64,000 bases of DNA from a virus (lineage: Duplodnaviria; Heunggongvirae; Uroviricota; Caudoviricetes): the IMG/VR virus record IMGVR_UViG_3300033273_000374, positions 1-64,000 of that record; one strand, written 5' to 3'. Positions 4,350-29,299 of the stretch are shown one piece after another (the stretch's first letter is position 1; the number at the start of each line of letters is the position of its first letter). Position numbers and translations under genes: made by a program. A model generated the notes under the pieces. It was not told where the DNA came from, searched no databases, and saw only the letters and a list, made by a program, of their open reading frames with translations.

Positions 4350-4363
4350 TTTTCATTCCCAAA

Positions 4364-4494: not shown

Positions 4495-4496
4495 TG

Positions 4497-4525: not shown

Positions 4526-4531
4526 CTGTTT

Positions 4532-5436: not shown

Positions 5437-5449
5437 TGATTTCTCCTTG

Positions 5450-5734
5450 TTATTTTGGCATCTCTACAATAGGAAATTCTGCATATTTTTTGCGTCGTGT
5501 GCCGCTTGCTCCTTTGCGATGTACCATACCTACAGCAAAACCATTCTCCAGTTCTACCCAATATTCAACATCACGCTCTGGACCAGGCCAGTTTTTATAA
5601 CTGGCGTTACGTCTAACAATACGCACATCACTGAACTTCTTTGCTTCAATGTCAGTGTTACGGTACTTGGGCAAGTCCCACCAAGCACCAAAATCATCTT
5701 CGAGTGTCATATTTTTGTTGAGGATATTGTACAT
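5450..5734 (-). CDS. hypothetical protein (94 aa), coupled to the upstream AAA+ gene
   Basis: Start is 2 nt after the CobS-like stop. Confidence 0.5.
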   Translation of the reverse strand: MYNILNKNMTLEDDFGAWWDLPKYRNTDIEAKKFSDVRIVRRNASYKNWPGPERDVEYWVELENGFAVGMVHRKGASGTRRKKYAEFPIVEMPK

Positions 5735-5735
5735 C

Positions 5736-6860: not shown

Positions 6861-6871
6861 ACTGTACTACT

Positions 6872-6900
6872 GTTATACACTGGTATGTGGTATGTGTCAA
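6872..6900 (-). promoter_or_regulatory. sigma70-like promoter GGTTGACA-N17-TATAAC for the CobS-like gene
   Basis: Minus-strand -35 at 6895-6900 and -10 at 6872-6877. Confidence 0.55.
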
Positions 6901-6911
6901 CCACTAAGTGT

Positions 6912-6941
6912 AAAAAAAATCCCCCGTGTTAACGAGGGATT
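6912..6941 (-). terminator. rho-independent terminator (hairpin AATCCC..GGGATT followed by U8 on the minus strand)
   Basis: Stem 6919-6923/6936-6940 plus 2 inner pairs. A8 run at 6912-6919 on the plus strand equals a U-tract on the minus transcript. Sits between the upstream gene stop (6955) and the next promoter. Confidence 0.55.
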
Positions 6942-6954
6942 GTAATTTTTAGAT

Positions 6955-7236
6955 TTATAAATAGGCAGTAGGTGTATTAGCACAGTTAACTAATTGATGT
7001 GGATTATTACGAAAATTACGAAGCGCGGCTGCTTGCATATACTTTTGGTGACGAGTTTGTTTTGTAGTCATTTTATAATATGCATAAAGCACACGATGCA
7101 AATACATTGATTGGTTGGCTTGATTAAATGCTGGGGTAAGCTTTGGATGATTGGGTATATGCTTACGGATAAGTTTTGCAAGCAAACGAGCAAACTGTGT
7201 AGAGTGGTTATTTGCGAACTGTTGTACGTTTGACAT
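6955..7236 (-). CDS. hypothetical protein (93 aa)
   Basis: ATG at 7236 with AGGAG SD. Bounded by promoter and terminator. Confidence 0.55.
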   Translation of the reverse strand: MSNVQQFANNHSTQFARLLAKLIRKHIPNHPKLTPAFNQANQSMYLHRVLYAYYKMTTKQTRHQKYMQAAALRNFRNNPHQLVNCANTPTAYL

Positions 7237-11119: not shown

Positions 11120-12013
11120 TTAGGTTCCCCAGGCATTTCCAAATAGGCTAATGTGGAGTCTTGGAGTAAATCTCCATCCTCTTTCCATACAGGCTTCTGC
11201 CACGTCTTTAACGTTGAGGGAATATTCTTCACTGCGTCCGCCCATTGGCATAAGGTAGACCGGACACTGGACTCCGGCGTCCCTATAAGCGTCCACAGCT
11301 CTTGCAACTTCGTTGAAATCATCCTCACTAGCGACAACAAACTTGAGATACATGTCACTACCGTCAACAAGGCTATACTCACGAGCAACAGCAGGCAAGA
11401 TAGCAGTTTCCCAAGGTTCTCCGCTAACACTAAGTTTTGGGGAACAACTCCAAGTGACTGTAAATCTGTCTTGGTCGTTGAGATAATTGAAGAAATCGTC
11501 GTGTAACTCTTGTGTAGTGTTTGTTTCAAATGTGACATTTTTCAAATCCTTCATACGTGGATGCTCAAATAAATCTATGTAGAGCTTTTGCCAAGCTAAC
11601 AAAGGCTCTCCGCCGGTTAATATTAAATGAATATCTTGACCATTGTCTTGTGTCCATTTACCATTGGGAGCAAGTGATAGCAAATGTTCAACCACTTCAT
11701 CTACTTCTGCAAGTTTATTAAAGTGTTTAAACTCTGGGTAGATACTTGCATATGTATCACACCCTGTGTGAATAATAGGCAAGTCGTTAAATTCTTTTGT
11801 AGTTTCATGTACGCCTGCATCAATAAGTGCTTTTACTTCTGCATTGTATCGCTGACCTTCTTTGTGTTGTTCCCAGCGATCTTTTTTTGTATCAACTCCA
11901 AAGTTCATACAACGGAAGTTACAACCAAATGTGCGTAAAAATACACTAGGTACTCCTACAAACTTGCCTTCGCCTTGTACACTGTAAAATGCTTCGCTGT
12001 ATCTAAGTTTCAT
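11120..12013 (-). CDS. queE: radical SAM 7-carboxy-7-deazaguanine synthase QueE
   Basis: N-terminal YSVQGEG motif and the C-x14-C-x-C cluster (FGCNFRC....) typical of QueE. Confidence 0.85.
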   Translation of the reverse strand: MKLRYSEAFYSVQGEGKFVGVPSVFLRTFGCNFRCMNFGVDTKKDRWEQHKEGQRYNAEVKALIDAGVHETTKEFNDLPIIHTGCDTYASIYPEFKHFNKLAEVDEVVEHLLSLAPNGKWTQDNGQDIHLILTGGEPLLAWQKLYIDLFEHPRMKDLKNVTFETNTTQELHDDFFNYLNDQDRFTVTWSCSPKLSVSGEPWETAILPAVAREYSLVDGSDMYLKFVVASEDDFNEVARAVDAYRDAGVQCPVYLMPMGGRSEEYSLNVKDVAEACMERGWRFTPRLHISLFGNAWGT

Positions 12014-13116: not shown

Positions 13117-13882
13117 TGTTCCGTAATTGGCGTTGTATTTGACTTTCGTCAATCAACGATAATCCATCCATAAACAAATTTTTATTATTGATTATAGCAT
13201 CAACTAGATCAGAAATCAATTTATCTTTGTTAACAAATATTTCTCGTTGTAACCAGTCTCTGTAAAGACTGTTGATTTCATCGCTGTTGCGTACTACTTC
13301 TAGTTCTAACCAATTTGCTATGTCGCACACTGTAAATTGAAAATTATCTCTTATGTTACTTATTGGCACAGTTTTAACATATTGTTTGTTAAGATTGTTT
13401 ACCTCATTAATACCTGACCCAACTACAAATATATCATGTAACAAAAAACTAAGTTGTTCTCTTAACTCCCATAAATTGGTGCCTTCCCATTTGTCCTCGT
13501 TTACTTTAAGCATATCTTTTATGTATTGCTTGTTGAACAAACCATTTTTGCTTGCTTTTGAATTACAGTTATTCATAATCCAAATAAAATTATCTAACTT
13601 GGGATACAAATAGAGGACTTTATCGTATACAGTGTGTAAAAGTTCAATTTGTGACTGTAATGATTGTACACCTTCATACATTGGATGCACCAATATTCCG
13701 TTGTGAGCTAATTCACATGCTTTTTCAACAGTTTTAGGATGTATCCTAGTCCATCCATGACTATTGAATACAGTGTTACCTACAAATGGTCTATAATCAA
13801 CAGGATATTTTCCTTGTAACCATTCAAGGGTCCATCCAATAAAATTTCCGTATGCACCAGCTGGGAATGCCACAACGTACAT
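13028..13882 (-). CDS. paralog B of the tandem pair (PAGAYGNFIGW N-terminal motif)
   Basis: 284 aa. Moderate similarity to paralog A through the body; identical C-terminus. Confidence 0.6.
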   Translation of the reverse strand: MYVVAFPAGAYGNFIGWTLEWLQGKYPVDYRPFVGNTVFNSHGWTRIHPKTVEKACELAHNGILVHPMYEGVQSLQSQIELLHTVYDKVLYLYPKLDNFIWIMNNCNSKASKNGLFNKQYIKDMLKVNEDKWEGTNLWELREQLSFLLHDIFVVGSGINEVNNLNKQYVKTVPISNIRDNFQFTVCDIANWLELEVVRNSDEINSLYRDWLQREIFVNKDKLISDLVDAIINNKNLFMDGLSLIDESQIQRQLRNKGYEIKCYGLNEWPKTTTQLRELIYEANI

Positions 13883-14361
13883 TATAATTCAGTAAGTGTT
13901 TCTTTGCGTGTGAACCATGGTGTAAAGATTGCACTGTTTGCACCATGTTCGCTACATTCGCAACTTTCGCAACTTACACGGCCATCTGTTTGTTCACGCA
14001 CCAATTGATCTGCAAATCGCCATGCATGCTCTGCAAACTTCTCCGCACCAACACCATCTAGTATGGTAAGTTGAGCAAGTCCTTTTGCTTCTAGTTCTTT
14101 GAGATCATCTAGTTTAGGATCTGCACTGTCCAGTACAACCTTGTGATCAAATGTATCTTCAAGCCATTGTTTAAGTGGCTTGAGTCCTCCAAAGTCTTGT
14201 ACCCAGTTGCGATGATCAAGATCACTTGCAGCAAATACAAATTTAAATGCTAGACTGTAGCCATGTAAGAACCTGCAGTGTGAATGATCTGCATGTGGTT
14301 GACGAAACACTGCACTGAGTCCAATGTTGTGTCCATATGTTTTTGTTGAATAATGCGGCAT
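13882..14361 (-). CDS. queD: 6-carboxy-5,6,7,8-tetrahydropterin synthase QueD (PTPS family)
   Basis: CxxxHGH-type motif (HSHCRFLHGYS). T-fold size 159 aa. Confidence 0.8.
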   Translation of the reverse strand: MPHYSTKTYGHNIGLSAVFRQPHADHSHCRFLHGYSLAFKFVFAASDLDHRNWVQDFGGLKPLKQWLEDTFDHKVVLDSADPKLDDLKELEAKGLAQLTILDGVGAEKFAEHAWRFADQLVREQTDGRVSCESCECSEHGANSAIFTPWFTRKETLTEL

Positions 14362-14457: not shown

Positions 14458-15007
14458 GTTTTTTCTCAAGAATATCTGTTTTTACTGCTTGGAATGCCAT
14501 AACACTACGCATTTCTTTGCATCTACGCTGTGGACCTTTTCCAATGTGTGGAATGCTGCTATCAAACACTACCAACTTGCGAGGAACATACACACTGGCT
14601 CTTACTAAATCGTCAAAGTAGAAAACAGTTTCTCCGCCCCAATTGAGTTCCCAAGTTTTGTCTGTGTACAGCACACCAGTTATGCTTTCTCCTGCACTTG
14701 GCCAATCTGTGTGGATATCACCATCTAACCCAAATGTGTTTGCACTGGCCATGTTACGCACCATGGTGTAACTGTCATCGCAAAACTGCTCCATAAAACG
14801 ATTGCCAAGAGTCTGTACAATGTCAGGGGCACTCTCATGGTAGTCACGTTCTTTAAGATAATAAAAGCCTTGGAACCACTGTGGGTAATTGGGTTCAATT
14901 TTGTTGTCACTGACTTGACCAAACTGCCAGCGGTTTGCATACACTACATGAAAAAACAGTTCTTTTTGTTCTTCTTCTGTTATCCAGTCCATGTGTTCTT
15001 CAAGCAT
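14438..15007 (-). CDS. Fe(II)/2-oxoglutarate-dependent oxygenase-like protein
   Basis: HxD...H arrangement (DIHTDW ... GGETVFY ... IPHIGKG). Confidence 0.5.
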   Translation of the reverse strand: MLEEHMDWITEEEQKELFFHVVYANRWQFGQVSDNKIEPNYPQWFQGFYYLKERDYHESAPDIVQTLGNRFMEQFCDDSYTMVRNMASANTFGLDGDIHTDWPSAGESITGVLYTDKTWELNWGGETVFYFDDLVRASVYVPRKLVVFDSSIPHIGKGPQRRCKEMRSVMAFQAVKTDILEKKLAKPSK

Positions 15008-15752
15008 CTGTTCTTACCCTTTTGTTGTATTCTACTGCTTCTTTGAGTATGCTCAATAGATTGGGATCATACTGTTTGGCTGTATACAATATTGCACTGG
15101 TATCTTTTGGTAAACAGTGTCCACCCCATCCACGCTCTTTGGTAACATAACTGTGGTCATCTAAAATGCGTTTATCAACACACAAGTGGTGCCTTACTTG
15201 ATCAAAATCTACACCTAATGTTTCACACAAGTCGTACATTTGGTTAAAGAAACTGACCTTTAGAGCAAGGAAACTATTTTCCATATACTTGATAACTATT
15301 GCTTCTCGCATGGTTGATTCATACGTTGCTAGAGCAGGCCATTTCTCTTTAAACATGTTGATCCAAAACTTTGTGTCGCCACCTCCCATTATAGCATACT
15401 CTTGATTTTCAAAATCCTCTATTGCTGTTGCGCCACGTAAGAACTCCGGCGAGAACGTTATTTTGTCACGATGCTTGAATTTTTCATAACATTCTAAACT
15501 AAAGGTGCTTTTAATTAGCACCGGAACATCCTCATCAACAGCTTCAAGTACTTCTATCACATTGTCGTAATTACACGATCCGTCTTCGCGTTCAGGTGTG
15601 CTTACTGCAATCACAACTGCGTCATATGCACTTTTGGTTGATGATAACGTGTGTCCTTGATCAGGATCAATTATGTCAAAATGATGCAGATCTTTGAATG
15701 CATGGAAAAATGCTTTACCTACGTACCCATAACCGTATAATCTTATCTTCAA
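15000..15752 (-). CDS. short (250 aa) UDP-glucose/GDP-mannose dehydrogenase-family protein
   Basis: N-terminal Rossmann GYGYVGKAF and catalytic-Cys motif GWGGHCLPKDT. Lacks the C-terminal UDP-binding domain length. Confidence 0.55.
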   Translation of the reverse strand: MKIRLYGYGYVGKAFFHAFKDLHHFDIIDPDQGHTLSSTKSAYDAVVIAVSTPEREDGSCNYDNVIEVLEAVDEDVPVLIKSTFSLECYEKFKHRDKITFSPEFLRGATAIEDFENQEYAIMGGGDTKFWINMFKEKWPALATYESTMREAIVIKYMENSFLALKVSFFNQMYDLCETLGVDFDQVRHHLCVDKRILDDHSYVTKERGWGGHCLPKDTSAILYTAKQYDPNLLSILKEAVEYNKRVRTDA

Positions 15753-16840: not shown

Positions 16841-17024
16841 GTTCTTCCCTCAGTTGTTTCACTCTGTGTTCCATCCAATGAATAGAGGTGTGTATGTAAC
16901 CTGTGTCATGTGGACGCAAACAGGTCTTTGCATACTCTATCTCTTCTTGCAATGCAATAATTTTTGCTGGCTTACTAATCACTTTGATTTCTCTATGCTT
17001 ACCATTGGATTCATTTTCATCCAC
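16791..17024 (-). CDS. hypothetical protein (77 aa); its C-terminal half is repeated at 18282-18422
   Basis: ORF track plus the repeat comparison. Confidence 0.4.
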   Translation of the reverse strand: MDENESNGKHREIKVISKPAKIIALQEEIEYAKTCLRPHDTGYIHTSIHWMEHRVKQLREELEILYKKNDSTQGLEQ

Positions 17025-17110
17025 TCTTCATAATCCTCGTGTGGCATATAGTATGCAAGTACGACATGCCAAGCCTTCATGATTTCCTGCTCAAGATCAA
17101 GGCGTTTCAT
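16942..17110. repeat. repeat block copy 1 (R1 16942-17001, R2 17001-17059, R3 17066-17110), matching 18382-18441, 17864-17922 and 18241-18285
   Basis: Near-identical 45-60-bp segments read directly from the sequence. Confidence 0.8.
16979..17110 (-). CDS. 43-aa ORF, a chimera of the N-terminus of the 18043-18285 product and the C-terminus of the 17838-18068 product
   Basis: Hand translation: MKRLDLEQEIMKAWHVVLAYYMPHEDYEEWMKMNPMVSIEKSK. Not in the ORF track (below 60 aa). Confidence 0.3.
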   Translation of the reverse strand: MKRLDLEQEIMKAWHVVLAYYMPHEDYEEWMKMNPMVSIEKSK

Positions 17111-17522
17111 TTTTTTTCTTCACCATTTCTCCATCACGAACAACGTACCTATGAACTGGATGCATTCCAGATTTGATATATGCACGACCGCCGTCAATCA
17201 TATTACCGTTCTCAAACTGTTTATAATCGTGGCGATGAGCACTGTACTGTAGGTTGCCATCGTCATCTTCTACAAGACCAAACTCTGGTTGCTCGATACG
17301 ATCAGCATTAGTAATCATAAGATTGCCAGTAAACGGATTGTTATAGAGTCCAAAATAACGATTACCAAATCTTGGATGCGGAGTCTCTCTGTAAAAGATA
17401 TCCATTGCCTGTGCTTCGTCTCCTAATGCACTGGTACAGACATAGTTAATAGGAACACCATCTTTATTGCTGTAGTGTTCGCAAATCTTATCAGTATCAA
17501 ATTGTGGTTCGTGTTTAATCAT
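17097..17522 (-). CDS. hypothetical protein (141 aa)
   Basis: ORF track. Confidence 0.5.
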   Translation of the reverse strand: MIKHEPQFDTDKICEHYSNKDGVPINYVCTSALGDEAQAMDIFYRETPHPRFGNRYFGLYNNPFTGNLMITNADRIEQPEFGLVEDDDGNLQYSAHRHDYKQFENGNMIDGGRAYIKSGMHPVHRYVVRDGEMVKKKNETP

Positions 17523-17845
17523 TTAATAATCCAATCCATAGACATCCAGTCTGTTTCTTCCGGCATCATTTCAACTAGGTCTCCGTGCTGTTTCTTGAAC
17601 TGATTCCAGACATAAGCATTGTTATTGCGTAGAGTATAACTTTCTTTATGGCAACTGTAACAACTTCCGCTTGATCCATAGAAATTAAAACGGTCACCAG
17701 CATCCTCTACACGAGTAATCCCGCTGTTCATACGCCAACTGTCGCCAGTAGTGTATCCACCACTCCAACCAGCAAGAACACGGTAATGCGGATCATCACT
17801 TTTAATTTTAATAACTACCCAATTATCTGGGTTATAATCAGTCAT
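17519..17845 (-). CDS. hypothetical protein (108 aa)
   Basis: ORF track. Confidence 0.5.
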   Translation of the reverse strand: MTDYNPDNWVVIKIKSDDPHYRVLAGWSGGYTTGDSWRMNSGITRVEDAGDRFNFYGSSGSCYSCHKESYTLRNNNAYVWNQFKKQHGDLVEMMPEETDWMSMDWIIK

Positions 17846-18068
17846 CTTCTTTCACCATTGGATTCATTTTCATCCACTCTTCATAATCCTCATGCGGCAT
17901 ATAGTATGCAAGCACAGTTTGAATTGCCTTGAGCAACTCAAAGTCTGGCTCAAGAACATCATTTGAACAGTTAATCCTATCAAACTGATTATTCATATGA
18001 TAAGCATCTTTCAGCTCATCAATGACAACTTCATCGCAATCTTCAACTCTTAGTGAAATCGTTTTCAT
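17838..18068 (-). CDS. hypothetical acidic protein (76 aa)
   Basis: ORF track. Confidence 0.45.
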   Translation of the reverse strand: MKTISLRVEDCDEVVIDELKDAYHMNNQFDRINCSNDVLEPDFELLKAIQTVLAYYMPHEDYEEWMKMNPMVKEDD

Positions 18069-18285
18069 TTTGTTTCCTCATTGCATGGTATTCCTTGCAT
18101 AAATCTTCAAATATATTAAAGACCTTTTGGAATCTCATATTGTATATACTCTCCAGTCCAAGAAGGGCATTTGCAATATCATCGGTGGACATATCTGTTT
18201 CCATGACATTCTCATTGAGAATTTGAATGTCATCTATAACATGCCAAGCCTTCATAATCTCTTCTCCAAGATCAAGGTGTTTCAT
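18043..18285 (-). CDS. hypothetical protein (80 aa)
   Basis: ORF track. Confidence 0.45.
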   Translation of the reverse strand: MKHLDLGEEIMKAWHVIDDIQILNENVMETDMSTDDIANALLGLESIYNMRFQKVFNIFEDLCKEYHAMRKQNENDFTKS

Positions 18286-18422
18286 TCTTCCACTCCGTTT
18301 TCAATCTCATCCATCCAACTGATAGCAGTATGAATGTGTCCAGTATCGTGCGGTTGCAAACACGAACGAGCGTGTTCAATTTCTTCTTGCAATGCAATAA
18401 TTTTTGCTGGCTTACTAATCAC
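18282..18422 (-). CDS. 46-aa GTG-start ORF, paralogous to the C-terminal half of the 16791-17024 product
   Basis: Hand translation: VISKPAKIIALQEEIEHARSCLQPHDTGHIHTAISWMDEIENGVEE. Its stop overlaps the next ATG. Confidence 0.25.
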   Translation of the reverse strand: MISKPAKIIALQEEIEHARSCLQPHDTGHIHTAISWMDEIENGVEE

Positions 18423-18832
18423 TTTGATTTCTCTATGCTTAAATTGCCCCAAACCCAACATTCGGTGTCATAGTGTTCCCAACCATCTTCTTCCCAACCA
18501 TCGTAGTATTCTTCATCCCACAGGTCATCAAGTCGTTCTTGTTCTTCTTCACTCATGTCGTCTGGGTAGATAACATCATCGTATACGCCATCGTCTAGTG
18601 AATCTATTTCTACGCTTTCTACATTGTCGGGCCATTCATCGTAGATGTTACAAGCATCAGCACCTGGACCACTGTCAAATGAAAACTCTGGAGGCTCATC
18701 GTCTGTAGTGGTTACAGTCCATGCACCCCAACGCCAGCCGGTGATGCGACGGATAACCATGTCATCCTTTTGCCACATTTCGTGTTCTTCAACACTCTTT
18801 TTATTTTCTGTTTCAACAAACCATACAGCCAT
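18419..18832 (-). CDS. hypothetical highly acidic protein (137 aa)
   Basis: ORF track. Asp/Glu/Trp-rich. Confidence 0.5.
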   Translation of the reverse strand: MAVWFVETENKKSVEEHEMWQKDDMVIRRITGWRWGAWTVTTTDDEPPEFSFDSGPGADACNIYDEWPDNVESVEIDSLDDGVYDDVIYPDDMSEEEQERLDDLWDEEYYDGWEEDGWEHYDTECWVWGNLSIEKSK

Positions 18833-18845
18833 TGTCTTCTCCTAA

Positions 18846-21800
18846 CTAGAAGTTTAATTTTACACTAATACCAGCACGTTTTTCAATTTCTTTTTTCACA
18901 CCTGTTATGGTATCTCGTAGTTCTATAAATGCACCTACCTTGCCTTGCAGTCCTAACTTTGTAGCGAACTCGTCTACTTGTTTGATACCTGTTTTTGTAA
19001 TATCAAAATTGTAGTATGTGCCAAAATCAATTTCTCTGTTGCTGTTGCGGAAGTCTACTGTGCGCAATTCTGTGTTTACATTTCCGTCTAGTGTTCTGCC
19101 TGTTGGCACACGATATGTAAATTTTGCACTTTCAACTGTAACAGGTTGCGATATTGCAAAACCCAATGTGTGTCCGTCTGCAGGACCAAGTTCATAGCCA
19201 ACAGTAGCAGTTGAACTGATTACATCTTCTGCGTCAACTAACATGCTGTTGCTTTTATCAAAGTTTACACTGGTATATCCTAATCCAGCCTGTGCATAAA
19301 ACCCACCATAGCGATAGTTGTAGTTTGCATAAACTGTGGTGCTGTCTTTTGTTGTACCTAGTGTGCCTGAAAGACTGTTGCCTAAATAGTGTCCATCGCT
19401 CTTACCAAATCCAATTTCAATGTTGTTGTTTTCGTTGATGGACCACGGAAACGCACCATGCTGATCATGATTCATATAGCCTGCAAAGTAGTTTACTGCA
19501 CCCATTTGCTCTGCAACACTTGCAGTTCGTGTGTCAATGTCAGCACTAACCATGCTGCTCAAGTCAATGTAGAAGTCACGTTCAAAACTGTCAAGCACCA
19601 TTACATTTGTAAGTGCTGTAAGTTGTTGTGCTGCAACCCCAATGACATTAGCACCTCCAGATACAGTGCTTACTCCACCATCAGTACGTCCACTTGTTGG
19701 AATGCCTGTGGCGCCCACTGGGCGTGTAGCAGCATCCATGTCTAGTATGCCATGCCCATGCAAGTTCTCGTCGTACACATTGTCGCCGTAACTGTTAAGC
19801 ACTTCTTCTTTGGCAGTGACCAGCACCAACTGTACCAAGTGCTTGCCTTTCATGTGTGGCCACATTTGATGCAATATTGCAATAGCACCACTCACAACAG
19901 GTGCTGCCATACTGGTGCCTGTCATGTTGGTGTAGCCGCCACCTGACTTTGTGCTGTCTACCATGTAGCCATCTGCTAGTATGAAAAAGTCTTTTATCTG
20001 AGCAGCATCTTTACACACACCATCTACATAGGTTGCACACACTGTGCCTGCTTTGTTGCCATACTGGTTTCCTCTGTCATATGATCCAACAATGATCATT
20101 TGTCCATCAAGTATGAGATTACCGTTAGCATCGGTAGCAGTGGCCATTTGATTCATGCCTGCACTATAACTTGTGCCTGCATTGCCTGCAGCCTTTACCA
20201 ATACCATTTCGTTGCCTAGTGCTGCTTTCCAGTTAACTGCTTCGTTGACTGCACCATTGTAGCCATTGACACCATAGTACCAATGGTCACTGTGCCATAC
20301 ACCGTCACCATCTTGTACAAGACTGTTTTTAAAGTTGGTGTCAAGTCTAGTCTCTGCACTGACATTGATAGCAACTGCACCTAAATTTTTACCCCACTCT
20401 GCTGCTCTTTGTGCATTGAAGAAACTGAATGCATAACCATCAGCAACTTTTGCAATAGCAAGTTTAGCATCAAACGCTGCACCATGCATGCCTATGTCAT
20501 TCTTTTCTGCAGCAACGATACCTGCAACATGAGTGCCGTGATCACTTGCATTGCTAATACCACTACCAGTGTAGTCTATAGTGTGTGCAATGTTGTCATC
20601 TAAATCTATGTGTGATGTATCTGCACCTGTGTCAGCAACTACAACTAGACTGCCTTTACCCGTCCAGCCTCTACTGTAAGCAACATCAAAGTTACTTTGT
20701 AGCAAATGGTTGTTTCCAAGTCCTGTGGTTTTAAATACACTGTATTCATCTGTGCGATAGTGGTTACGATCTTCAACATAACCTGGTGTGCGTGTGCCCA
20801 TGTCAGGATGATCGTTGCCAATTACTTCTGTATCAGTTTCGTTCTCCGCATCAGTGCCAGCACTGAGTTCCTCACGCATTAGTTCAAGTTCTTCGTTGCG
20901 TTGGCTAGCAACTGGATACTTTGTTACAGGCTCTCTGTAACGCAATGATTGGTTTGTCAGTTCTGTTTCGGTAGTGCCGTCGCTGTAGGTTGTTATTGTG
21001 TAAGTATCTGTGGCATACACATGAGTGTGTATTTCGGGTGTAACAAATGTTATAATACGATATGTAACAAGCCAATTGCCTTCTACACGTTCCTCAACTG
21101 CAGAGCTTTGTATCTCTTCTGGCAAGTATTCTTTATCCAAGCGCAACCAATATTCCGCTTCTGTGCGTGTTTCTTGGTTTACAATTGTAATAGCTTCTTC
21201 TGTAGTTTCTTCCGCAACAGGTTCAGAATCAACAACTTCTTCTACTGGTTGGTCAACAACTTCTTCTACTTCTTCTACAACTGGCTCAGTTGTTTCTTCC
21301 TCTTCAACTGGTTCTACATTTTCATCAATTGTTTCATCTACCGGTTGTGGTTCAACTTCTTCAACAATAGGGTCACTTATTTCTACATCAGGATCAGTAG
21401 TTTCTTCTACAACTTCTACTTCAGTATCAGGCAATTCCTCTACAATAGGATCCGTTAATTCTTCTACAACTGGATCAGTTTCTTCTACAACTTCTTCTGG
21501 TTGTTCCTCTACCTCAAGATCTACTGTTTCTGCTGTTGGATCTGTTTCCTCTACTTCGGTTTGGTATAGTTGTACTTGTGTATTCTCATGGAAGTCATCT
21601 ATAGAAAAATTTTCATCTGCGCCAATGTCGGCATGATCAATATACCCATTACTTTCCATAAGAACATATTCTTTTATATAATGATATTCTTCGGATGCAT
21701 CATCGTACTGTCCAGTTTCAACTACTCTAGACCACCATTCTTCTTTGTTATCATAATATAGTTTTTTGTAGCCTTTGAGAATATTGTAAGCACTATCAAG

Positions 21801-22136
21801 GCTCATAGTAGAACCGTTTACTTCAACTGTGTATTGAGATAGTTCAGAAGAATCTATATTATGATTTGCATTCATCCATTCAAAAACATTCACTATTTCT
21901 TGGGCAGTAACCTTTCCGTCTTCACTAACCTGTTGTACCACAGCAGTAAATTCATTTTGGCTCAAATTTGATATATCAAAACCACCAATAGATGTTGGAG
22001 TATTGTCTACCACAGGACTTACATTAATTGGAGTAAAAGTATTAGAGCCGTTGTTATTGCCGCCGCCTCCGCCGCCTTGACAGGCTGCAAGAGCAGTTGT
22101 ACTTGCTAACAAAAATGCTTTGAATGCCCAATTCAT
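18846..22136 (-). CDS. S8 subtilisin-like serine protease (1096 aa): lipoprotein-type signal peptide, acidic PEEV/TDP repeat region, and an autotransporter-like C-terminal beta-domain ending in F
   Basis: Catalytic triad blocks VVADTGAD, HGTHVAGIVAA and GTSMAAPVVSGAIA. N-terminus MNWAFKAFLLASTTALAAC (lipobox). C-terminus ...GISVKLNF. Confidence 0.8.
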   Translation of the reverse strand: MNWAFKAFLLASTTALAACQGGGGGGNNNGSNTFTPINVSPVVDNTPTSIGGFDISNLSQNEFTAVVQQVSEDGKVTAQEIVNVFEWMNANHNIDSSELSQYTVEVNGSTMSLDSAYNILKGYKKLYYDNKEEWWSRVVETGQYDDASEEYHYIKEYVLMESNGYIDHADIGADENFSIDDFHENTQVQLYQTEVEETDPTAETVDLEVEEQPEEVVEETDPVVEELTDPIVEELPDTEVEVVEETTDPDVEISDPIVEEVEPQPVDETIDENVEPVEEEETTEPVVEEVEEVVDQPVEEVVDSEPVAEETTEEAITIVNQETRTEAEYWLRLDKEYLPEEIQSSAVEERVEGNWLVTYRIITFVTPEIHTHVYATDTYTITTYSDGTTETELTNQSLRYREPVTKYPVASQRNEELELMREELSAGTDAENETDTEVIGNDHPDMGTRTPGYVEDRNHYRTDEYSVFKTTGLGNNHLLQSNFDVAYSRGWTGKGSLVVVADTGADTSHIDLDDNIAHTIDYTGSGISNASDHGTHVAGIVAAEKNDIGMHGAAFDAKLAIAKVADGYAFSFFNAQRAAEWGKNLGAVAINVSAETRLDTNFKNSLVQDGDGVWHSDHWYYGVNGYNGAVNEAVNWKAALGNEMVLVKAAGNAGTSYSAGMNQMATATDANGNLILDGQMIIVGSYDRGNQYGNKAGTVCATYVDGVCKDAAQIKDFFILADGYMVDSTKSGGGYTNMTGTSMAAPVVSGAIAILHQMWPHMKGKHLVQLVLVTAKEEVLNSYGDNVYDENLHGHGILDMDAATRPVGATGIPTSGRTDGGVSTVSGGANVIGVAAQQLTALTNVMVLDSFERDFYIDLSSMVSADIDTRTASVAEQMGAVNYFAGYMNHDQHGAFPWSINENNNIEIGFGKSDGHYLGNSLSGTLGTTKDSTTVYANYNYRYGGFYAQAGLGYTSVNFDKSNSMLVDAEDVISSTATVGYELGPADGHTLGFAISQPVTVESAKFTYRVPTGRTLDGNVNTELRTVDFRNSNREIDFGTYYNFDITKTGIKQVDEFATKLGLQGKVGAFIELRDTITGVKKEIEKRAGISVKLNF

Positions 22137-22166
22137 ATGACTCTCCGTAGTCTTACCTACATTACT

Positions 22167-22194
22167 AATGTAGCACGGATATACATGTTGTCAA
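22167..22194 (-). promoter_or_regulatory. sigma70-like promoter GGTTGACA-N16-TACATT upstream of the subtilase gene
   Basis: -35 at 22189-22194, 50 nt upstream of the start at 22136. Confidence 0.4.
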
Positions 22195-22212
22195 CCAATT
22201 TTATTTAGATTG

Positions 22213-22491
22213 TTATGTATTTGTAACTTTATCCCACATACGGTACCTTTCTAACAGTTTTTGATAGTGTTCCCAAGCAGCGAAAAGTTCTGGATATTTG
22301 TCTCTCAACAGTTCGTTTTCAAATTCTTCAACCAAGTCGCTGTTGTATGTTATTTCGTAACTGGCTCTTTGTGATAACGTTATAGGGTCAGACAAAGGAT
22401 CTAACTTGTTATTATACTTGCTTGTGTACTGATAGTCGTCGTCCTCTGTAAAGATGTTTTGTTGCATGGTCCATTTTTTATCGTTGTCCAA
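22213..22491 (-). CDS. hypothetical protein (92 aa)
   Basis: ORF track. Confidence 0.45.
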   Translation of the reverse strand: MDNDKKWTMQQNIFTEDDDYQYTSKYNNKLDPLSDPITLSQRASYEITYNSDLVEEFENELLRDKYPELFAAWEHYQKLLERYRMWDKVTNT

Positions 22492-22795
22492 CTACTTTCT
22501 CCCATGCTTGATATTTTACTTGCAACTCTAAAAATTCCCTATACTTTTCTTGTAGTTCAGGATGCTTGTGCATTAGTGTATAATCTGGATTAACATCTTG
22601 TACATTTGGCCAATTGTCTGGCCTAGGCATTGATGTGTTAGGGTAAAAACTTTCTGGAGCACCACCAACAATCCAGCGTGGTAAAGAATTGTGAGGAGGA
22701 TCTCTGTAACGAGCATAAATTATACCATTCATACCTCGTTCATATATGAGAGCCTCCCCAGGAACCAGTGTCTCTTTGTTTTGAGTCACTGCCAA
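22478..22795 (-). CDS. hypothetical protein (105 aa)
   Basis: ORF track. Confidence 0.45.
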   Translation of the reverse strand: MAVTQNKETLVPGEALIYERGMNGIIYARYRDPPHNSLPRWIVGGAPESFYPNTSMPRPDNWPNVQDVNPDYTLMHKHPELQEKYREFLELQVKYQAWEKVVGQR

Positions 22796-22800
22796 TTCGT

Positions 22801-23586
22801 CTACTCTTTCTTAGCACGTGGCTTGCGTGGTGCACGTGGCTTAGCCGGTGCTTTCTTAGCAGGTGCTTTTTTAGCAGGTTTTTCTGGTTCAGCCTTTGGC
22901 TTAACTTTCTGATTACCTGTTAGATATTGTGGTACTGGTTCAGCAGGAACCTTACTTTGGAGCCATTTGAGCAACACCCCATATGCAGGAAGGAACACTA
23001 CCAATCCTACTACGACCTTAGTAAGGGTATTGTTCTGTGCTACAATGTGCCAGTTTTCACCAATCCATGTTAACTTACCATCTGGTCCTGTTGCACCTGC
23101 AAATGCAACAAAGAAGAATGAATAAGTGTCAATGATATTAGCAGCAATAGTACTAATAGCAGGTGCTGCCCACCATGCTTTTGAATACTTTTCACGAATG
23201 TGTTGGAACACATACACGTCAAGCATTGTGCCAATAGCATAAGCAGTACCACTTGCAAAACCTACGCGATACGCATGTGAATCGCCAAGTGCAAGCAACA
23301 CAAGCACTGAAGCAACAATAGCAGGAATAACTGCCATTGCAACAACTGCTCTACCTGCTTCTTTACCAACCATACGCACTGTAAGGTCTGTGGCAACAAC
23401 TACAATTGGAAATGTAAATGCTGCTGCCGCTAGTGGAAATGATCCAAACAAAGGTAACTCTGCACCTGGGAATAAATCAAATCTAATTGTAACCAAGTAG
23501 TTTGACACAGCAATAACTAGCGTGTGTAAAATAACTAGATTACGAACAAGTGTTTTATCAACACCTTCTAGAAGTTTATTGAACAT
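22801..23586 (-). CDS. yhhQ: YhhQ/DUF165-family queuosine-precursor transporter with a Lys/Ala/Pro-rich basic C-terminal tail
   Basis: Polytopic membrane protein with an FPIVVVATDLTVRMVGKEAGRAVVA block resembling YhhQ. Tail KKAPAKKAPAKPRAPRKPRAKKE. Confidence 0.6.
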   Translation of the reverse strand: MFNKLLEGVDKTLVRNLVILHTLVIAVSNYLVTIRFDLFPGAELPLFGSFPLAAAAFTFPIVVVATDLTVRMVGKEAGRAVVAMAVIPAIVASVLVLLALGDSHAYRVGFASGTAYAIGTMLDVYVFQHIREKYSKAWWAAPAISTIAANIIDTYSFFFVAFAGATGPDGKLTWIGENWHIVAQNNTLTKVVVGLVVFLPAYGVLLKWLQSKVPAEPVPQYLTGNQKVKPKAEPEKPAKKAPAKKAPAKPRAPRKPRAKKE

Positions 23587-23598
23587 AATGTTCTCCTT

Positions 23599-24474
23599 TT
23601 ATTCTCTACTTAAATCAAGTGTACAACAGTGGTGTCCTCCACCAAGTGTACGGCTATGAGCAAATGGCAAAACATAATTGTCAATGCCATTTGCATCAAG
23701 TGCCTCTTTTAATCGAGGCACATCATCTATGACCGCCAGGTTAGGACGAATCATAAAGAAGTTAAGCAGGATATAGTTGCTCGCAAAAGCCTCACCTGCA
23801 TATTGTCTTTGTGGTAAATCTTCGTTACCAAGCCAAATAATCTCCCAATCTTTGAAACAATCTGGTAAATTTATTTTGCTTACTCTATCCTTGTTTACTA
23901 CAACAAGCCCTTCATTTACTGGGACGAAAGTACTGTCAATGTGTACTCCGCCATAGGTTTTAGTTATTTCTACAGTGTGATTTGGGAACTGTTCCTGCAA
24001 CCAGGTAGCACCTGCACGGGTTCCACTGACACTTTGTAGATATAAAAGTGTTTGGCCTAGTCTACAAACGTTGGCTGCATCAAAACGCAGCCTCGGGTTG
24101 CGAGGAACAGTTATTACATTTTTTGCATTTTCAAGTACATAATTGATATATTTTGTTTCTTGAAGTCTGCAATCATATTGCATGTGGCAGTCTACAACAG
24201 TATCGCCTACTATGAGCAATCTATCTCGTGGGCAATAGTTGTACATACCCTGCGTTTGTGCAAAGTTGTTATACTTTGGTCTGTGTACTTCTACACCTTC
24301 TTGTTCTAGTATGCTTACAAATCTATCTAAGTCTGCATCTGCTTGAGTAATAACTTCATTGGGATATTCGCCTGGAACGTCAAAATGACAATCATCAGGC
24401 TTGTTGGCACCAGCAGCACTGCCTACCACTACACTGTGCAATGGCGACCATTCGTTATGAGTACTAATTTGCAT
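23599..24474 (-). CDS. amidinotransferase-superfamily enzyme (glycine amidinotransferase/arginine deiminase fold)
   Basis: C-terminal catalytic-Cys motif GGGHHCCTLD and family-typical length (291 aa). Confidence 0.6.
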   Translation of the reverse strand: MQISTHNEWSPLHSVVVGSAAGANKPDDCHFDVPGEYPNEVITQADADLDRFVSILEQEGVEVHRPKYNNFAQTQGMYNYCPRDRLLIVGDTVVDCHMQYDCRLQETKYINYVLENAKNVITVPRNPRLRFDAANVCRLGQTLLYLQSVSGTRAGATWLQEQFPNHTVEITKTYGGVHIDSTFVPVNEGLVVVNKDRVSKINLPDCFKDWEIIWLGNEDLPQRQYAGEAFASNYILLNFFMIRPNLAVIDDVPRLKEALDANGIDNYVLPFAHSRTLGGGHHCCTLDLSRE

Positions 24475-24504: not shown

Positions 24505-25185
24505 TCATCTTTTACAAGCATTTACAATGTTCATAAACTCGTTGCGAACTGCCGGATCTTCTTTGAAACAACCGCCTAGTTTGCTGGTAACAGTTGATGA
24601 TCCCACATCTTCAACACCGCGACTCTTAACGCAATAGTGTTGTGCGTCAACAACAACTGCAATGTCGTCTGTGCCTAGAATGTATTGTAGTGCGTGATAA
24701 ACTTGTTCTGTTAGGCGCTCTTGGATTTGAGGACGTTTAGAAAAGTATTCTACTACACGGTTTAGTTTAGATAGACCTAGTACTTTGTCTTTAGGAATGT
24801 ATGCGACTGTAGCAATACCATCAATGACAACGAAGTGATGTTCACAGTTTGATTGGACATTGACATTACGCTCAATAACCATCTCATCGTATTTCATCTT
24901 GTTGTCTACGGCTGTACACTTTGGAAATGCTTCGTAATCGAGTCCCCAGAAGATTTCGTTAACATACATCTTTGCAACACGCTTGGGTGTTTCGATCAAA
25001 CTATCGTCAGTTAGATCCAATCCCATAATCTTCATAATCTCGGTAAAATGACTTTCAATTTTCTCAATCTTGTCTTTGCGATTAATACCGTTATCAATAA
25101 CTGGAGTTTCTACACCGCACTTTACTAGGTGTTTGTGAACTTCGAGACCCAAAACAGGGTCAGTCTTTGTTTTATTATATGCCAT
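24505..25185 (-). CDS. folE: GTP cyclohydrolase I FolE
   Basis: CEHHFVVIDG ... KLNRVVEYFSKRPQIQERLT ... VVVDAQHYCVKSRGV conserved blocks. Confidence 0.85.
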   Translation of the reverse strand: MAYNKTKTDPVLGLEVHKHLVKCGVETPVIDNGINRKDKIEKIESHFTEIMKIMGLDLTDDSLIETPKRVAKMYVNEIFWGLDYEAFPKCTAVDNKMKYDEMVIERNVNVQSNCEHHFVVIDGIATVAYIPKDKVLGLSKLNRVVEYFSKRPQIQERLTEQVYHALQYILGTDDIAVVVDAQHYCVKSRGVEDVGSSTVTSKLGGCFKEDPAVRNEFMNIVNACKR

Positions 25186-26633: not shown

Positions 26634-27151
26634 TCGTGTCCTGTTACCTGTAGAGTGTATCTTGGTTCAAGTCCAATGTTAGCAGCCATGTGTTCAACAT
26701 CTCCTCTCCACCAAATGTAATCGCCGCGCTTCCAACTAACAATCGGATTGCCTGCTATTTCAAAATAATGTCCTGATTTCCAATTTTCTAAGAACACTAT
26801 AATACGTTGAATTTGATTTACTTCTACATCAAATAGTTGTCTGTATTTTTTATAAGTGTCTCTGTGTGTGGGTAAAACTACGCCTGTAGGCATTCTATAA
26901 AAACTAGTGCCTGTATTTTTAAGTCCGTATATGTTTTTCAACATTTGCACTAGATCGTTTGTATAACCTGTTTGTGGTTTACGCATATCACATAGATCAC
27001 CTACAAAAGGCGGAGTGTAGCCTTGTACTGTCCACGTATCTATATCTTGGGAATTATTAAAGGGCTCAGACTGATAATCAAGGTCTATGTGACTATCGTC
27101 CCAAAAAGGATCTATATAGCCTATGTGCCAGTTACTATCGTGTGTTGCCAT
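26630..27151 (-). CDS. cupin/Fe-oxygenase-like protein, paralog 2 (173 aa)
   Basis: PTHRDT ... VEHMAANIG. Shares the WK(P/S)GH(F/Y)..(D/E) block with paralog 1. Confidence 0.35.
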   Translation of the reverse strand: MATHDSNWHIGYIDPFWDDSHIDLDYQSEPFNNSQDIDTWTVQGYTPPFVGDLCDMRKPQTGYTNDLVQMLKNIYGLKNTGTSFYRMPTGVVLPTHRDTYKKYRQLFDVEVNQIQRIIVFLENWKSGHYFEIAGNPIVSWKRGDYIWWRGDVEHMAANIGLEPRYTLQVTGHE

Positions 27152-28418
27152 AATGTATTACCTTACTTGCTTCGCTGTTAAATTTACGCCATGGATCTAC
27201 CACAATGCTATCCATTGGTATTGTACAATACAAACTGTCTGTGTTACTGTCTTGGTGCATGTATTTGTAGGTTGTGCTTGCACTATGTGCTAATAACATT
27301 ACACAAGATTGTTTAGGTTCATTATTGTCTCCAGTCAATGGATCAATGTATGTTACACTTTTGCCCATTTCCTCAACATAATGACCGATCAATAAACTAT
27401 AACTTCCATCAATGTATTCTACACCAGGCTTGTATGCTTTGCCATGTATATAAATTTCCATTGCATTTTCGTCTGCAAGTTTTACTAACAGTTTAGCAAG
27501 GTTGTGTGCTTGCTTTTCTCTTGCATTCATTATAGCGTCAAATAAATCATATCCTAAATCTAATTCTTGTGCCATGTAGCGCAAGGCAATATTGTCACGC
27601 GGATGGCAAGCACCACCATCACCCATCCCTGCAGTCATATACTGCGGGCCCATGATCCGTTTGGTTGACTCTGCTAGTGCCTGGGTAACCACATCAACAT
27701 TGATATTGCCCTGCTTTACTGCCACATCCTGTATCATGTTTGCCAGTCCAATTTTGGTACTGATAAATGTGTTGTAAAACACTTTGATACATTCGCATTC
27801 GTCCCAAGTACCAACAACATACCTGGGATCATTTTCAATTACTGTTTTATAAAAGTCTACTAATAGTTGTGCATCACCTGTGGTAGTGCCATCTTCAGTA
27901 CCAACCATTACCATTTCAGGATTTAAAAAGTCCCATGCAACACTGCCCATAGCAATCAAGTATGGGTTGTATGCAAAACGTGTGTTTGTTATCAGTGGAA
28001 CAAATTCTCTGCGAACTGTGCCCGGAAGCACTGTAGAGATAAGCACAATCATTTGTGCATTGTGCATGTGTTCGTTACACTCACGCAATACTTGTTTTAC
28101 AATGTCGTAGTTAAAATCTTTAGGTTCAAGATGTGCAGTAGGCACACGACCATCATAACTTGCTTCATGCGGAGTTGGCACTGCTACAAAAACAATCTTA
28201 GAAAACTCAACTGCTTGTTTGATAGTGTCTACGATGTTTACATATTCACTTGAAACTGGTGCAACATCGTAACCTTTGACACTGTGTCCTTTTTTTGCCA
28301 TTTCCTCTGCACATGGCATTCCAAGTTTTCCGCAACCTATAAAAGCAATATTCATTGTGATGTGTACCATTTGTATGCAGTACGGATTATACTGTCTAAA
28401 TCGTGATTTGCTTTCCAT
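27135..28418 (-). CDS. ugd: UDP-glucose 6-dehydrogenase-family nucleotide-sugar dehydrogenase; probable start at MNIAFIG (28355)
   Basis: Rossmann IAFIGCGKLG and catalytic Cys motif GGACHPRD. Full three-domain length. Confidence 0.8.
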   Translation of the reverse strand: MESKSRFRQYNPYCIQMVHITMNIAFIGCGKLGMPCAEEMAKKGHSVKGYDVAPVSSEYVNIVDTIKQAVEFSKIVFVAVPTPHEASYDGRVPTAHLEPKDFNYDIVKQVLRECNEHMHNAQMIVLISTVLPGTVRREFVPLITNTRFAYNPYLIAMGSVAWDFLNPEMVMVGTEDGTTTGDAQLLVDFYKTVIENDPRYVVGTWDECECIKVFYNTFISTKIGLANMIQDVAVKQGNINVDVVTQALAESTKRIMGPQYMTAGMGDGGACHPRDNIALRYMAQELDLGYDLFDAIMNAREKQAHNLAKLLVKLADENAMEIYIHGKAYKPGVEYIDGSYSLLIGHYVEEMGKSVTYIDPLTGDNNEPKQSCVMLLAHSASTTYKYMHQDSNTDSLYCTIPMDSIVVDPWRKFNSEASKVIHYGNTR

Positions 28419-29299
28419 TTTAGGATGGTGTTGGCTGCAACAGTATCTGCTACAAGTGTACCAGGATCTCCTGGTCTAGGATCACCAAATTTTAGATCTA
28501 CTGAGAGAGGAGTAACACGGTTAATACTGTCAATAATCTCGAGATTGCTGTAGCCTCTTTCGCCACCTAAATTGAAAGTGTGTGCACCATTAGTCGTTTC
28601 TAACAGTTCAATACTATTTAGCACACCACGTGCCACATCCTCAACATGCACATAATCACGCACACAAGTTCCATCTGGCGTATCAAAGTTGTTACCAAAC
28701 AGTGTAAAATCTTTGCCAGCCATGGTGCGCTCTATGGCTTTTGCAATGATGTGAGTTGCATTGGGTTCTTGACCAAACTCGCCCTCAGGATCTGCACCTG
28801 CAACATTAAAGAAACGCAAACTTACACTGTTGAAATTGTATGCATGTGCGTAATCATTGAGTATGATTTCCATCATGCGTTTACTCCAACCATATGGGTT
28901 GCAAGGAGTATGAGGCATGTTTTCTGCACAAACATCTTCTTCTGGTTCACCGTAACAGGCTGCACTACTAGCAAACACAAATTTATCAATGCCTTTGTTG
29001 CGCACACTATCCAAGAGGTCAAGTGTTTGTGCAATGTTGTTTTGATAGTAAGGTGCAGGATCTATCACACTTGGTCCAACAAGACTGGTAGCACCTATGT
29101 GTACAACTGCATCTACACCATTAAACATATCATCACTGATATCACCATATGAGGTAAGTTGTACTTTGTCAAGGTAATTGTGTTTAATGTGTCTACGGTC
29201 AATTGCCACAACTTCGTACAGCAGACTTTTTAACATTTTGCAGACAGCAGAGCCAATGTATCCACCGGCTCCTGTTACCATTACTCTCTGTGCTGTCAT
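28352..29299 (-). CDS. galE: NAD-dependent nucleotide-sugar 4-epimerase (GalE-like SDR)
   Basis: VTGAGGYIGS Rossmann motif, the S...YxxxK triad (YGWSKRMME) and extended-SDR length. Confidence 0.8.
   Translation of the reverse strand: MTAQRVMVTGAGGYIGSAVCKMLKSLLYEVVAIDRRHIKHNYLDKVQLTSYGDISDDMFNGVDAVVHIGATSLVGPSVIDPAPYYQNNIAQTLDLLDSVRNKGIDKFVFASSAACYGEPEEDVCAENMPHTPCNPYGWSKRMMEIILNDYAHAYNFNSVSLRFFNVAGADPEGEFGQEPNATHIIAKAIERTMAGKDFTLFGNNFDTPDGTCVRDYVHVEDVARGVLNSIELLETTNGAHTFNLGGERGYSNLEIIDSINRVTPLSVDLKFGDPRPGDPGTLVADTVAANTILKWKANHDLDSIIRTAYKWYTSQ

Follow-up and report, generated by a model that had tools for sequence, protein, structure and literature searches.

Architecture and promoter of the subtilase gene

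The 64,000-nucleotide stretch of viral DNA analysed here (positions 1 to 64,000 of IMG/VR record IMGVR_UViG_3300033273_000374; hereafter the window) carries on its minus strand, at 18846-22136 (-), an open reading frame (ORF) that encodes 1096 aa from an ATG start. A first reading of the DNA letters alone (the original prediction) had described its product as a lipoprotein-signal S8 subtilase with acidic tandem repeats and an autotransporter-like C-terminus. The architecture of this protein is common to ~110 close homologues and at least 250 relatives in IMG/VR, and is therefore not attributable to chance; by these comparisons we regard the ORF as a real gene. A ribosome-binding site, GGAGAG, was read directly from the sequence at 22141-22146 (-), 4 nt before the ATG.

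The protein begins with MNWAFKAFLLASTTALAAC-QGGGGGGNNNGSN, comprising a short charged n-region, a hydrophobic core, the lipobox LAAC with Cys19, and then a Gly/Asn linker. Residues 1-19 (22080-22136, -) were assigned to a lipoprotein signal peptide from the sequence and its conservation among homologues, and the layout of n-region, h-region and lipobox (MNWAFK-AFLLASTTA-LAAC) agrees with the lipoprotein pattern [LVI][ASTVI][GAS]C expected of a signal peptidase II substrate. The lipobox and poly-Gly/Asn linker named in the original prediction are not peculiar to this protein: a lipobox followed by poly-Gly was kept in nearly all full-length homologues, C19 was nearly invariant, and GGG stood directly after the lipobox Cys in 87 of 90 relatives. 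The +2 residue after Cys19 is Q in the query and G in 87/90 relatives, and is never D; the lack of Asp at +2 agrees with the outer-membrane sorting rule, which is that of E. coli and may differ in the actual host. The flexible Gly/Asn tether proper, residues 20-33 (QGGGGGGNNNGSNT; 22038-22079, -), was predicted to be disordered.

A full-length AlphaFold2 (AF2) model, built from a 43-sequence alignment, had a mean predicted local distance difference test score (pLDDT) of 70.7 and resolved the remainder of the chain into modules. After the signal helix (residues 2-16) and the disordered Gly/Asn tether (17-43), both with pLDDT <50, came an N-terminal domain at residues 44-190 (21567-22007, -) with a helical core at ~78-186 (pLDDT mostly about 65-85). 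This domain is lineage-specific, has no sequence relative in the PDB, and its hidden Markov model matched just 9 of 106 distant family representatives. An all-beta middle domain at residues 326-420 (20877-21161, -), which contains a TYSDGT motif and was modelled as seven long strands across 318-420 (pLDDT mostly 75-88), likewise lacked a sequence relative in the PDB, and both domains were restricted to the close family.

Between these two domains lies the spacer, residues 191-325 (21162-21566, -), assigned from its composition, its weak repeat arrays, and predicted disorder (191-315, pLDDT <35). At 135 aa, with 41% D/E, 1% K/R, and 30% P/V, it matches the acidic low-complexity region of about 130 residues first noted here. 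Its description as "acidic tandem repeats" held for the acidity; the repeats themselves were degenerate. Tandem Repeats Finder returned degenerate arrays only (periods of 24 and 33 nt, 2-3.4 copies, 74-82% matches), corresponding to degenerate 8- and 11-aa periodicities at the protein level. Spacer length ranged from 59 to 600 aa across homologues while the flanking modules were constant in size, and an acidic, Pro/Val-rich composition was found in the query's closest relatives only, the spacers of other homologues being Thr/Ser-rich. The acidic region appears to be the lineage-specific version of a hypervariable spacer.

The subtilase (S8) catalytic domain occupies residues 446-805 (19722-20801, -) and was modelled with pLDDT 85-97. 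Peptidase_S8 (PF00082) was the single Pfam domain found, at residues 493-784 (E=1.2e-30, 107.3 bits vs a cutoff of 21.8), and the match spans profile positions 1-286 of 288. The complete Asp/His/Ser triad of the original prediction was confirmed as D502 (ADTG; 20631-20633, -), H533 (HGTH; 20538-20540, -), and S742 (GTSMAAP; 19911-19913, -). These residues and the oxyanion N652 (AAGNAG; 20181-20183, -) were all invariant in the alignment of 43 homologues. PDB matches to the domain were subtilisins and the passenger of the Ssp autotransporter (8e7f), with E about 1e-16. The mature protein has just two Cys, the invariant and closely spaced pair C700/C708, and exactly three Cys, the lipid Cys included, were counted in 66 of 95 relatives.

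A linker and conserved pre-barrel segment follow at residues 806-892 (19461-19721, -), delimited by conservation and modelled with low to moderate pLDDT. In the AF2 model, 807-822 formed a disordered linker (pLDDT <50), and the pre-barrel segment (about 836-892, moderate confidence) contained short helices only (836-842, 859-862, 874-877) together with short strands, at pLDDT about 55-75. This segment bears the motif VMVLDSFERDFYIDL...VDTR, in which D849 and R853 are invariant, and it is a candidate pore-filling or plug segment. The last module, residues 893-1096 (18849-19460, -), is a predicted outer-membrane beta-barrel of ~12 strands that ends in the beta-signal G-I-S-V-K-L-N-F.

In the 76-nt gap before the ATG, a consensus scan identified a sigma-70-type promoter, TTGACA-16 nt-(TG)cTACATT, with an extended -10 TG, at 22167-22194 (-). 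It has 10/12 matches plus the TG and ends about 30 nt upstream of the ATG. Among 29 non-redundant phage loci with a homologue, 14 had the same motif 53-83 nt before the start codon, vs 2.4% of control windows drawn at random from the same loci. On the gene strand of the window this motif class had 20 copies, vs about 3 expected, often 25-40 nt before start codons. This positional conservation in related loci, along with the recurrence in the window, makes the promoter more than a lone consensus match. The gene thus appears, as first proposed, to have its own promoter, conserved and of the sigma-70 type used by host RNA polymerase, and expression may be early. This recurrent class, TTGACA-N14-TGTGCTAnnnT with a shared extended -10, was located on the minus strand at 53875, 53275, 40022, 35600, 22194, 7295, 5176, and 4525, among other sites, and probably represents the phage's host-RNA-polymerase promoters. 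No terminator was found after the subtilase gene, and the next ORF begins 14 nt downstream.

Phage setting and a conserved genomic slot

Nearly all genes of the window lie on the minus strand, and they include a family-B DNA polymerase (phrog_262, E=2e-194), an exonuclease, a DNA methyltransferase, and an ATPase, in addition to QueE-like, GTP cyclohydrolase I, YhhQ-type, and ClpB/ClpA-like AAA+ proteins. The DNA polymerase was 51% identical to that of the Sinorhizobium jumbo phage Phosso, 48% to that of Agrobacterium phage Atu_ph07, and about 42% to those of Rak2-like jumbo phages; the gene order Clp ATPase, DNA polymerase, 5'-3' exonuclease is common to Atu_ph07. From these hallmark genes, the relatives of the polymerase, and the IMG/VR relatives of the subtilase we conclude that a large, uncultured phage of the jumbo type is the source of the window, consistent with its initial assignment to a phage genome.

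Deposited phages offered few relatives of the subtilase gene. A nucleotide search with 17000-24000 found no match among 50,697 GenBank phages; tblastn of the protein against deposited phages returned distant S8 cores only (<45% identity), and the C-terminal domain by itself had no tblastn match in those 50,697 genomes at E<=10. A search of 5.8 billion proteins exposed 110 homologues, all of them metagenomic and several on contigs of 70-204 kb. Four homologous loci, 29-59% identical to the query and including a Tara Oceans scaffold of 167 kb, keep the gene in the same slot, with the order DNA polymerase ... GTP cyclohydrolase I ... two small ORFs - S8 gene - ... PTPS/QueD ... DUF6071 - 5'-3' exonuclease. 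IMG/VR held at least 250 relatives on viral contigs of up to 306 kb, and 11 of the best 80 were on contigs >100 kb, three of these on contigs >200 kb. When bacteria and archaea were searched (one genome per species, 185,579 in total), the best of the matches listed was 28% identical and most of them covered the S8 core only. The original prediction had considered a protease of this kind unusual phage cargo. To judge from its position across a clade of large uncultured marine phages, the gene is instead a vertically conserved component of that lineage and not occasional cargo.

The two small ORFs directly upstream of the subtilase gene, at 22213-22491 (-) and 22478-22795 (-), encode 92 and 105 aa. 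Neither had a PHROG match, and size-matched counterparts were present at the same position in three of the homologous loci (L001, L003, and L005).

Other candidate affiliations were discarded. A 1251-aa "extracellular serine proteinase" of Atu_ph07 was rejected as an orthologue, being outside the syntenic slot near the DNA polymerase and aligning weakly in structure, at 13% identity. Membership in the anti-phage S8 proteins IteS/IetS was likewise rejected: the NCBIfam IteS model scored 16 bits vs a cutoff of 900, and the PADLOC IetS model scored 20.8 bits over ~50 residues around the catalytic Asp/His region only. The "moraphages" have ClpA and a "putative peptidase" among their core genes and genomes of up to 307 kb (PMC12619734). 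As that group is mostly freshwater with Bacteroidota hosts, and no common identifiers were found, a link to it is a lead only.

The predicted C-terminal barrel and its relation to autotransporters

The protein ends in ...RAGISVKLNF. The final residue was F in 94 of 95 full-length relatives and W in the other one, and in 94/95 relatives positions -2, -4, and -6 from the C-terminus were hydrophobic. The last eight residues fit G-[VIL]-[NS]-[VLI]-[NQ]-[LYW]-[KRN]-F, a beta-signal of the type read by the beta-barrel assembly machinery (BAM), again in 94/95, such that the terminal Phe singled out in the original prediction as typical of outer-membrane barrels is a family-wide trait. AF2 placed 11-12 long beta-strands at 893-1095, with pLDDT up to 96 in a domain-only model, and the last ~290 aa model as a barrel fold of the outer-membrane type. 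A C-terminus that was not a barrel, together with presence in virions, had been named at the outset as what would count against the prediction; a barrel was modelled, and the gene lies outside any structural module.

When the C-terminal domain was compared with known barrels, the comparison values were 10.7 and 172 for Hbp, 10.3 and 180 for EspP, 9.8 and 185 for EstA, 9.8 and 177 for AIDA-I, 9.6 and 168 for BrkA, and 9.5 and 169 for NalP; KdgM, NanC, OmpG, and CdiB scored similarly to these autotransporter barrels in the same comparison. Foldseek with this domain returned weak matches, the top-ranked being generic barrels, and the amphipathic alternation in the predicted strands was the same as in a soluble-domain control.

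A lipobox, an S8 passenger, and a C-terminal outer-membrane barrel are joined in one polypeptide in the NalP/SphB1 type, and the same combination, with a predicted barrel, is found here. NalP of Neisseria meningitidis and SphB1 of Bordetella pertussis are lipidated, surface-exposed subtilase autotransporters that cleave surface proteins (PMC9977779, PMC13421274). An envelope protease of this kind is the best overall reading of the gene, and one towards which we lean with reserve.

Several observations weigh against it. The PF03797 beta-domain family matched none of 19 C-terminal domains even at E<=10. Alignment by hhalign of the C-terminal profile (A1) with the PF03797 beta-domains of L112 (Pannonibacter) and L094 (Selenomonadaceae) gave probabilities of 0.4% and 0.1%, respectively, these control templates being two single sequences, so that very remote homology could escape. 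The C-terminal profile, searched against PDB sequences that included the NalP translocator, yielded a spurious PrgX match only (E=1.7). In the AF2 prediction no long pore-spanning alpha-helix precedes the barrel, the segment at 836-892 having moderate confidence only, and no beta-helix stalk is present. Moreover, BamA, LptD, FapF, and PgaA pair an N-terminal periplasmic domain with a C-terminal barrel, and a periplasmic orientation is possible on that model.

Further comparisons bore on the affiliation of the barrel. The whole protein had no PF03797 match at E<=0.1, and the positive controls for this family did match (L112, E=5e-27; L094, E=1e-24). Pfam found no consistent family among the 19 C-terminal domains, with isolated weak matches to Toluene_X and OMP_b-brl; no sequence homology was found between the phage barrel and the NalP translocator (PDB 1uyn/1uyo); and the NCBIfam EprS autotransporter model (NF051851) aligned with the protease part only (E=2e-17). 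Given the failures with PF03797 and in profile-profile comparison, we assign the barrel to a separate family that lacks Pfam annotation. Of the "autotransporter-like" C-terminus first proposed, the likeness in architecture and modelled fold stood, and the likeness in sequence did not.

The phage protein differs from NalP and SphB1 in other respects as well. Neither sequence nor profile comparison detected homology of its barrel to PF03797 or NalP-type translocators, no long pore helix is predicted, and it has additional modules, namely the N-terminal and beta domains, both lineage-specific, and the disordered, hypervariable spacer; furthermore, NalP and SphB1 are encoded by bacterial pathogens, whereas this protein is encoded by a large lytic-type phage. 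The non-lipidated subtilase autotransporters Ssp (Serratia, PDB 8e7f) and EprS (Pseudomonas) have a similar S8 passenger and the same layout of N-terminal passenger and C-terminal barrel, and Ssp was the second-best PDB match (E=8e-16). However, the matches to Ssp and EprS end at the protease, PF03797 is absent from the phage protein, and Ssp has a 248-residue beta-helix (PMC9977779) whereas no beta-helix stalk is predicted here.

Outside the query, the barrel family proved sizeable. An exhaustive search with the C-terminal profile across 1.84 billion representatives recovered 1,965 clusters at E<=1e-3, of which 825 reached E<=1e-10; the domain stood at the C-terminal end. Among 106 members of at least 600 aa, the passenger was an S8 protease in 94 and an FG-GAP beta-propeller in 12; about 45 of the 106 had a lipobox, which was followed by poly-Gly in 40 of those. 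Fusion to an FG-GAP propeller in 12/106 members fits a carrier or translocator module. Four such fusions (P0217, P0235, P0248, and P0259) are about 800 aa long and reside on short contigs.

Bacterial members were also identified by hhalign, namely L087 from a Thermodesulfobacteriota metagenome-assembled genome (MAG; 96%), L088 from a Bacteroidaceae MAG (96%), and L089 from an Aquabacterium MAG (75-79%), none of them with PF03797. In the first of these, the locus at 239-7016 of JAQWMJ010000054.1 encodes a PATR-repeat exoprotein, a TPR protein, a lipobox-S8-barrel protein, and a ShlB/FhaC-type TpsB transporter, the lipobox-S8-barrel gene being located between the exoprotein and the transporter. 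In Bordetella, the lipidated subtilase autotransporter SphB1 matures FHA, which is secreted via FhaC (PMC9977779). The two loci share the same functional trio, and the Thermodesulfobacteriota locus resembles a two-partner-secretion system that has its own maturation protease, SphB1-like and with a non-PF03797 barrel. From the exchangeable passengers and this locus, we infer that the barrel serves as a modular carrier or translocator for surface proteins.

Bacteria are already known to make lipidated subtilases that end in an outer-membrane barrel. The novelty lies in the occurrence in phages, in the conservation of the gene across a clade together with a promoter of its own, and in a barrel from an unrelated family. 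In literature on marine and aquatic jumbo phages and on phage-encoded autotransporters and subtilases, we found no earlier description of the gene or of the barrel family.

Proposed function, alternatives, and neighboring genes

We consider it very probable that the gene encodes an exported, outer-membrane-anchored, active protease. In the proposed sequence of events, a phage-made subtilisin-family protease would be produced in a Gram-negative host, probably from the host-RNA-polymerase (sigma-70-type) promoter. The signal peptide would route the protein through Sec, Cys19 would be lipidated, and signal peptidase II would remove the signal; the lack of Asp at +2 would direct the product to the outer membrane, where BAM would insert the C-terminal ~200 residues as a ~12-stranded barrel via the ...V-x-L-x-F beta-signal. 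By analogy with NalP and SphB1, the barrel would most likely also export the passenger, consisting of the N-domain, spacer, beta-domain, and protease. Passengers that cross the outer membrane are subject to a known constraint on Cys, which the single closely spaced pair C700/C708 fits. Surface exposure of the N-terminal passenger is somewhat favored over its opposite.

Once outside, the protease would stay at the cell surface on a long flexible tether, anchored through the barrel, the lipid, or both, and would clip surface proteins; placed on such a tether, it would be best suited to the infected cell's own surface. The most plausible use to the phage would be remodelling of that surface by destroying or shedding receptors and other surface proteins, with the speculative outcome that superinfection is blocked and progeny are not trapped on infected cells or debris. 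This assignment of the role to the destruction of receptors and surface proteins is tentative and of fairly low probability. Exclusion, surface remodelling, nutrition, and lysis were the roles offered in the original prediction, and these, like surface display, are still candidates.

Phages supply partial precedents. Llp of phage T5 is an early outer-membrane lipoprotein that inactivates the receptor FhuA, giving superinfection exclusion and progeny protection. The protein studied here resembles Llp in being a phage-encoded lipoprotein apparently aimed at the host outer membrane, plausibly early, and a functional analogy in receptor inactivation may hold (PMC9586334). Unlike this 1096-aa predicted enzyme with its own barrel, Llp is small, has no enzymatic activity, and binds one receptor only, and no sequence or fold relationship is expected. 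Other phage outer-membrane barrels, such as lambda Lom, cyanophage OMP-like barrels, and metagenomic "autotransporter beta-domain" proteins of uncultured Caudovirales in BFVD, indicate that phages do encode BAM-dependent outer-membrane proteins. However, these are mostly small or carry a classical PF03797 annotation, and none is a characterised protease. In BFVD, a 689-aa S8 protein of an uncultured phage aligned with the query over 724 columns (E=2e-41).

A bolder version, which we consider unlikely at present, would make the barrel the translocator of an unrecognised type V-like branch (about 2,000 clusters, with S8 and FG-GAP passengers) that a marine phage clade uses for a receptor-destroying surface protease. 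An early host-type promoter would drive the gene, and superinfection would be excluded and progeny protected by catalysis, in a logic like that of influenza neuraminidase or T5 Llp.

If a surface protease is indeed produced, it would be routine for large marine phages to rework the exterior of the cells they infect with a phage-encoded enzyme, with bearing on superinfection, adsorption to debris, and host-range interactions in the ocean, where the contigs are widespread. The barrel family, which is not in Pfam, takes interchangeable passengers, and is present in phages and bacteria, would add a self-export and anchoring module to the type V repertoire, one that could serve surface display. Should surface exposure fail, the gene would still encode a conserved phage envelope protease, and knowledge of its target would help to explain how this uncultured lineage of jumbo phages takes over or lyses its host.

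The strongest competitor, although a minority prospect, is a protease that faces the periplasm, with the barrel as an anchor only and the lipid in the inner leaflet. Its targets could be envelope tethers (Lpp, OmpA, Pal-type links), periplasmic defence or uptake proteins, or injection components, and the benefit would be takeover, exclusion at DNA entry, or disruption of the outer membrane at lysis. With an even-stranded barrel, the chain before strand 1 begins in the periplasm, and Lol-delivered lipoproteins default to the inner leaflet. The missing confident prediction of a pore-spanning helix and a barrel unrelated in sequence to proven translocators also agree with this orientation. Yet the barrel carries passengers typical of extracellular proteins (S8, FG-GAP), the passenger is Cys-poor, and disordered spacers of up to 600 aa are hard to fit into a periplasm about 20-25 nm wide. 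The two-partner-secretion context of the Thermodesulfobacteriota locus suggests a surface maturation protease, and NalP and SphB1 are precedents for lipidated, surface-exposed subtilases. For the lysis variant, a sigma-70-type promoter common to replication-region genes would be unexpected in a late lysis gene.

Considerably less probable is a nutritional auxiliary gene, in which a surface-bound or released protease would digest external protein to provide more peptides and amino acids for virions in nutrient-poor seawater. Secreted S8 proteases of marine bacteria are commonly nutritional, the homologues come largely from marine metagenomes, Tara included, and metabolic and auxiliary genes abound in the window. 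No linked peptide or amino-acid uptake genes were found in the window or the four related loci, however, and strict positional conservation (29-84% identity) with a dedicated promoter suggests a role in the infection cycle. A protease tethered by lipid and barrel is better placed to act on the surface of the cell that makes it, as NalP and SphB1 do, and a payoff within a single infection cycle seems doubtful.

The remaining explanations have very little in their favor. A virion-associated protease (tail or baseplate), depolymerase-like protein, or prohead-maturation protease would have parallels in the S8 proteases of other phages (phrog_3677, Bacillus SPO1-like phages, Pseudomonas phage Y5, and Atu_ph07). 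It is nonetheless highly improbable, as the conserved Sec/lipoprotein signal and the BAM beta-signal lead out of the cytoplasm, where virions are assembled, at all examined loci (the window and the four related ones) the neighbors of the gene serve replication, nucleotide metabolism, and DNA modification and not virion structure, and a soluble virion part would not contain a membrane barrel. The idea that the gene is bacterial, on a mis-binned or chimeric contig, or was captured recently without function for the phage, could draw on the three bacterial members of the barrel family but is scarcely credible. The window is co-linear, codes almost entirely on one strand, and has phage hallmark genes; the gene occupies the same slot by the phage genes for DNA polymerase and 5'-3' exonuclease on independent contigs of 70-204 kb and on many IMG/VR contigs; its catalytic residues are invariant; and the best bacterial genome match, among the matches listed, is just 28% identical.

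Several neighboring genes merit description in their own right. Around the subtilase gene lies a 7-deazaguanine-type modification or precursor set, at 11120-12013 (-), 13882-14361 (-), 22801-23586 (-), 23599-24474 (-), and 24505-25185 (-). Its members are a radical SAM enzyme resembling QueE (phrog_2076), a QueD/CPH4-synthase-like protein (PDB 7v0f, E=4e-7), a YhhQ/Vut_1 precursor transporter whose tail is rich in Lys/Pro/Ala, an inosamine-phosphate-type amidinotransferase (PDB 1bwd, E=3e-46), and GTP cyclohydrolase I. This gene set suggests that the phage DNA carries a modified deazaguanine base. Proteins like UDP-glucose/GDP-mannose dehydrogenase and a GT1 glycosyltransferase, encoded at 27135-28418 (-), 15000-15752 (-), and 29296-30489 (-), may serve DNA hypermodification or alteration of surface glycans.

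Farther from the subtilase gene, 58754-61009 (-) encodes a ClpB/ClpA-like double AAA+ chaperone (Clp_N, AAA, AAA_2, ClpB_D2-small), whose syntenic counterpart in Atu_ph07 is the Clp ATPase that lies upstream of the polymerase gene. A 1142-aa multidomain protein at 47288-50716 (-) contains weak cytidylyltransferase and GNAT-acetyltransferase pieces and matches part of the 3925-position PHROG profile phrog_10691. Finally, a tRNA-Ser(GCT) at 50-141 (+) is followed by a membrane-anchored protein at 628-1551 (+) that matches phrog_200 ("lipoprotein") and by a small hydrophobic protein at 1565-1858 (+). The features at 50-1858 (+), on the strand opposite to the rest of the window, may mark a module boundary.

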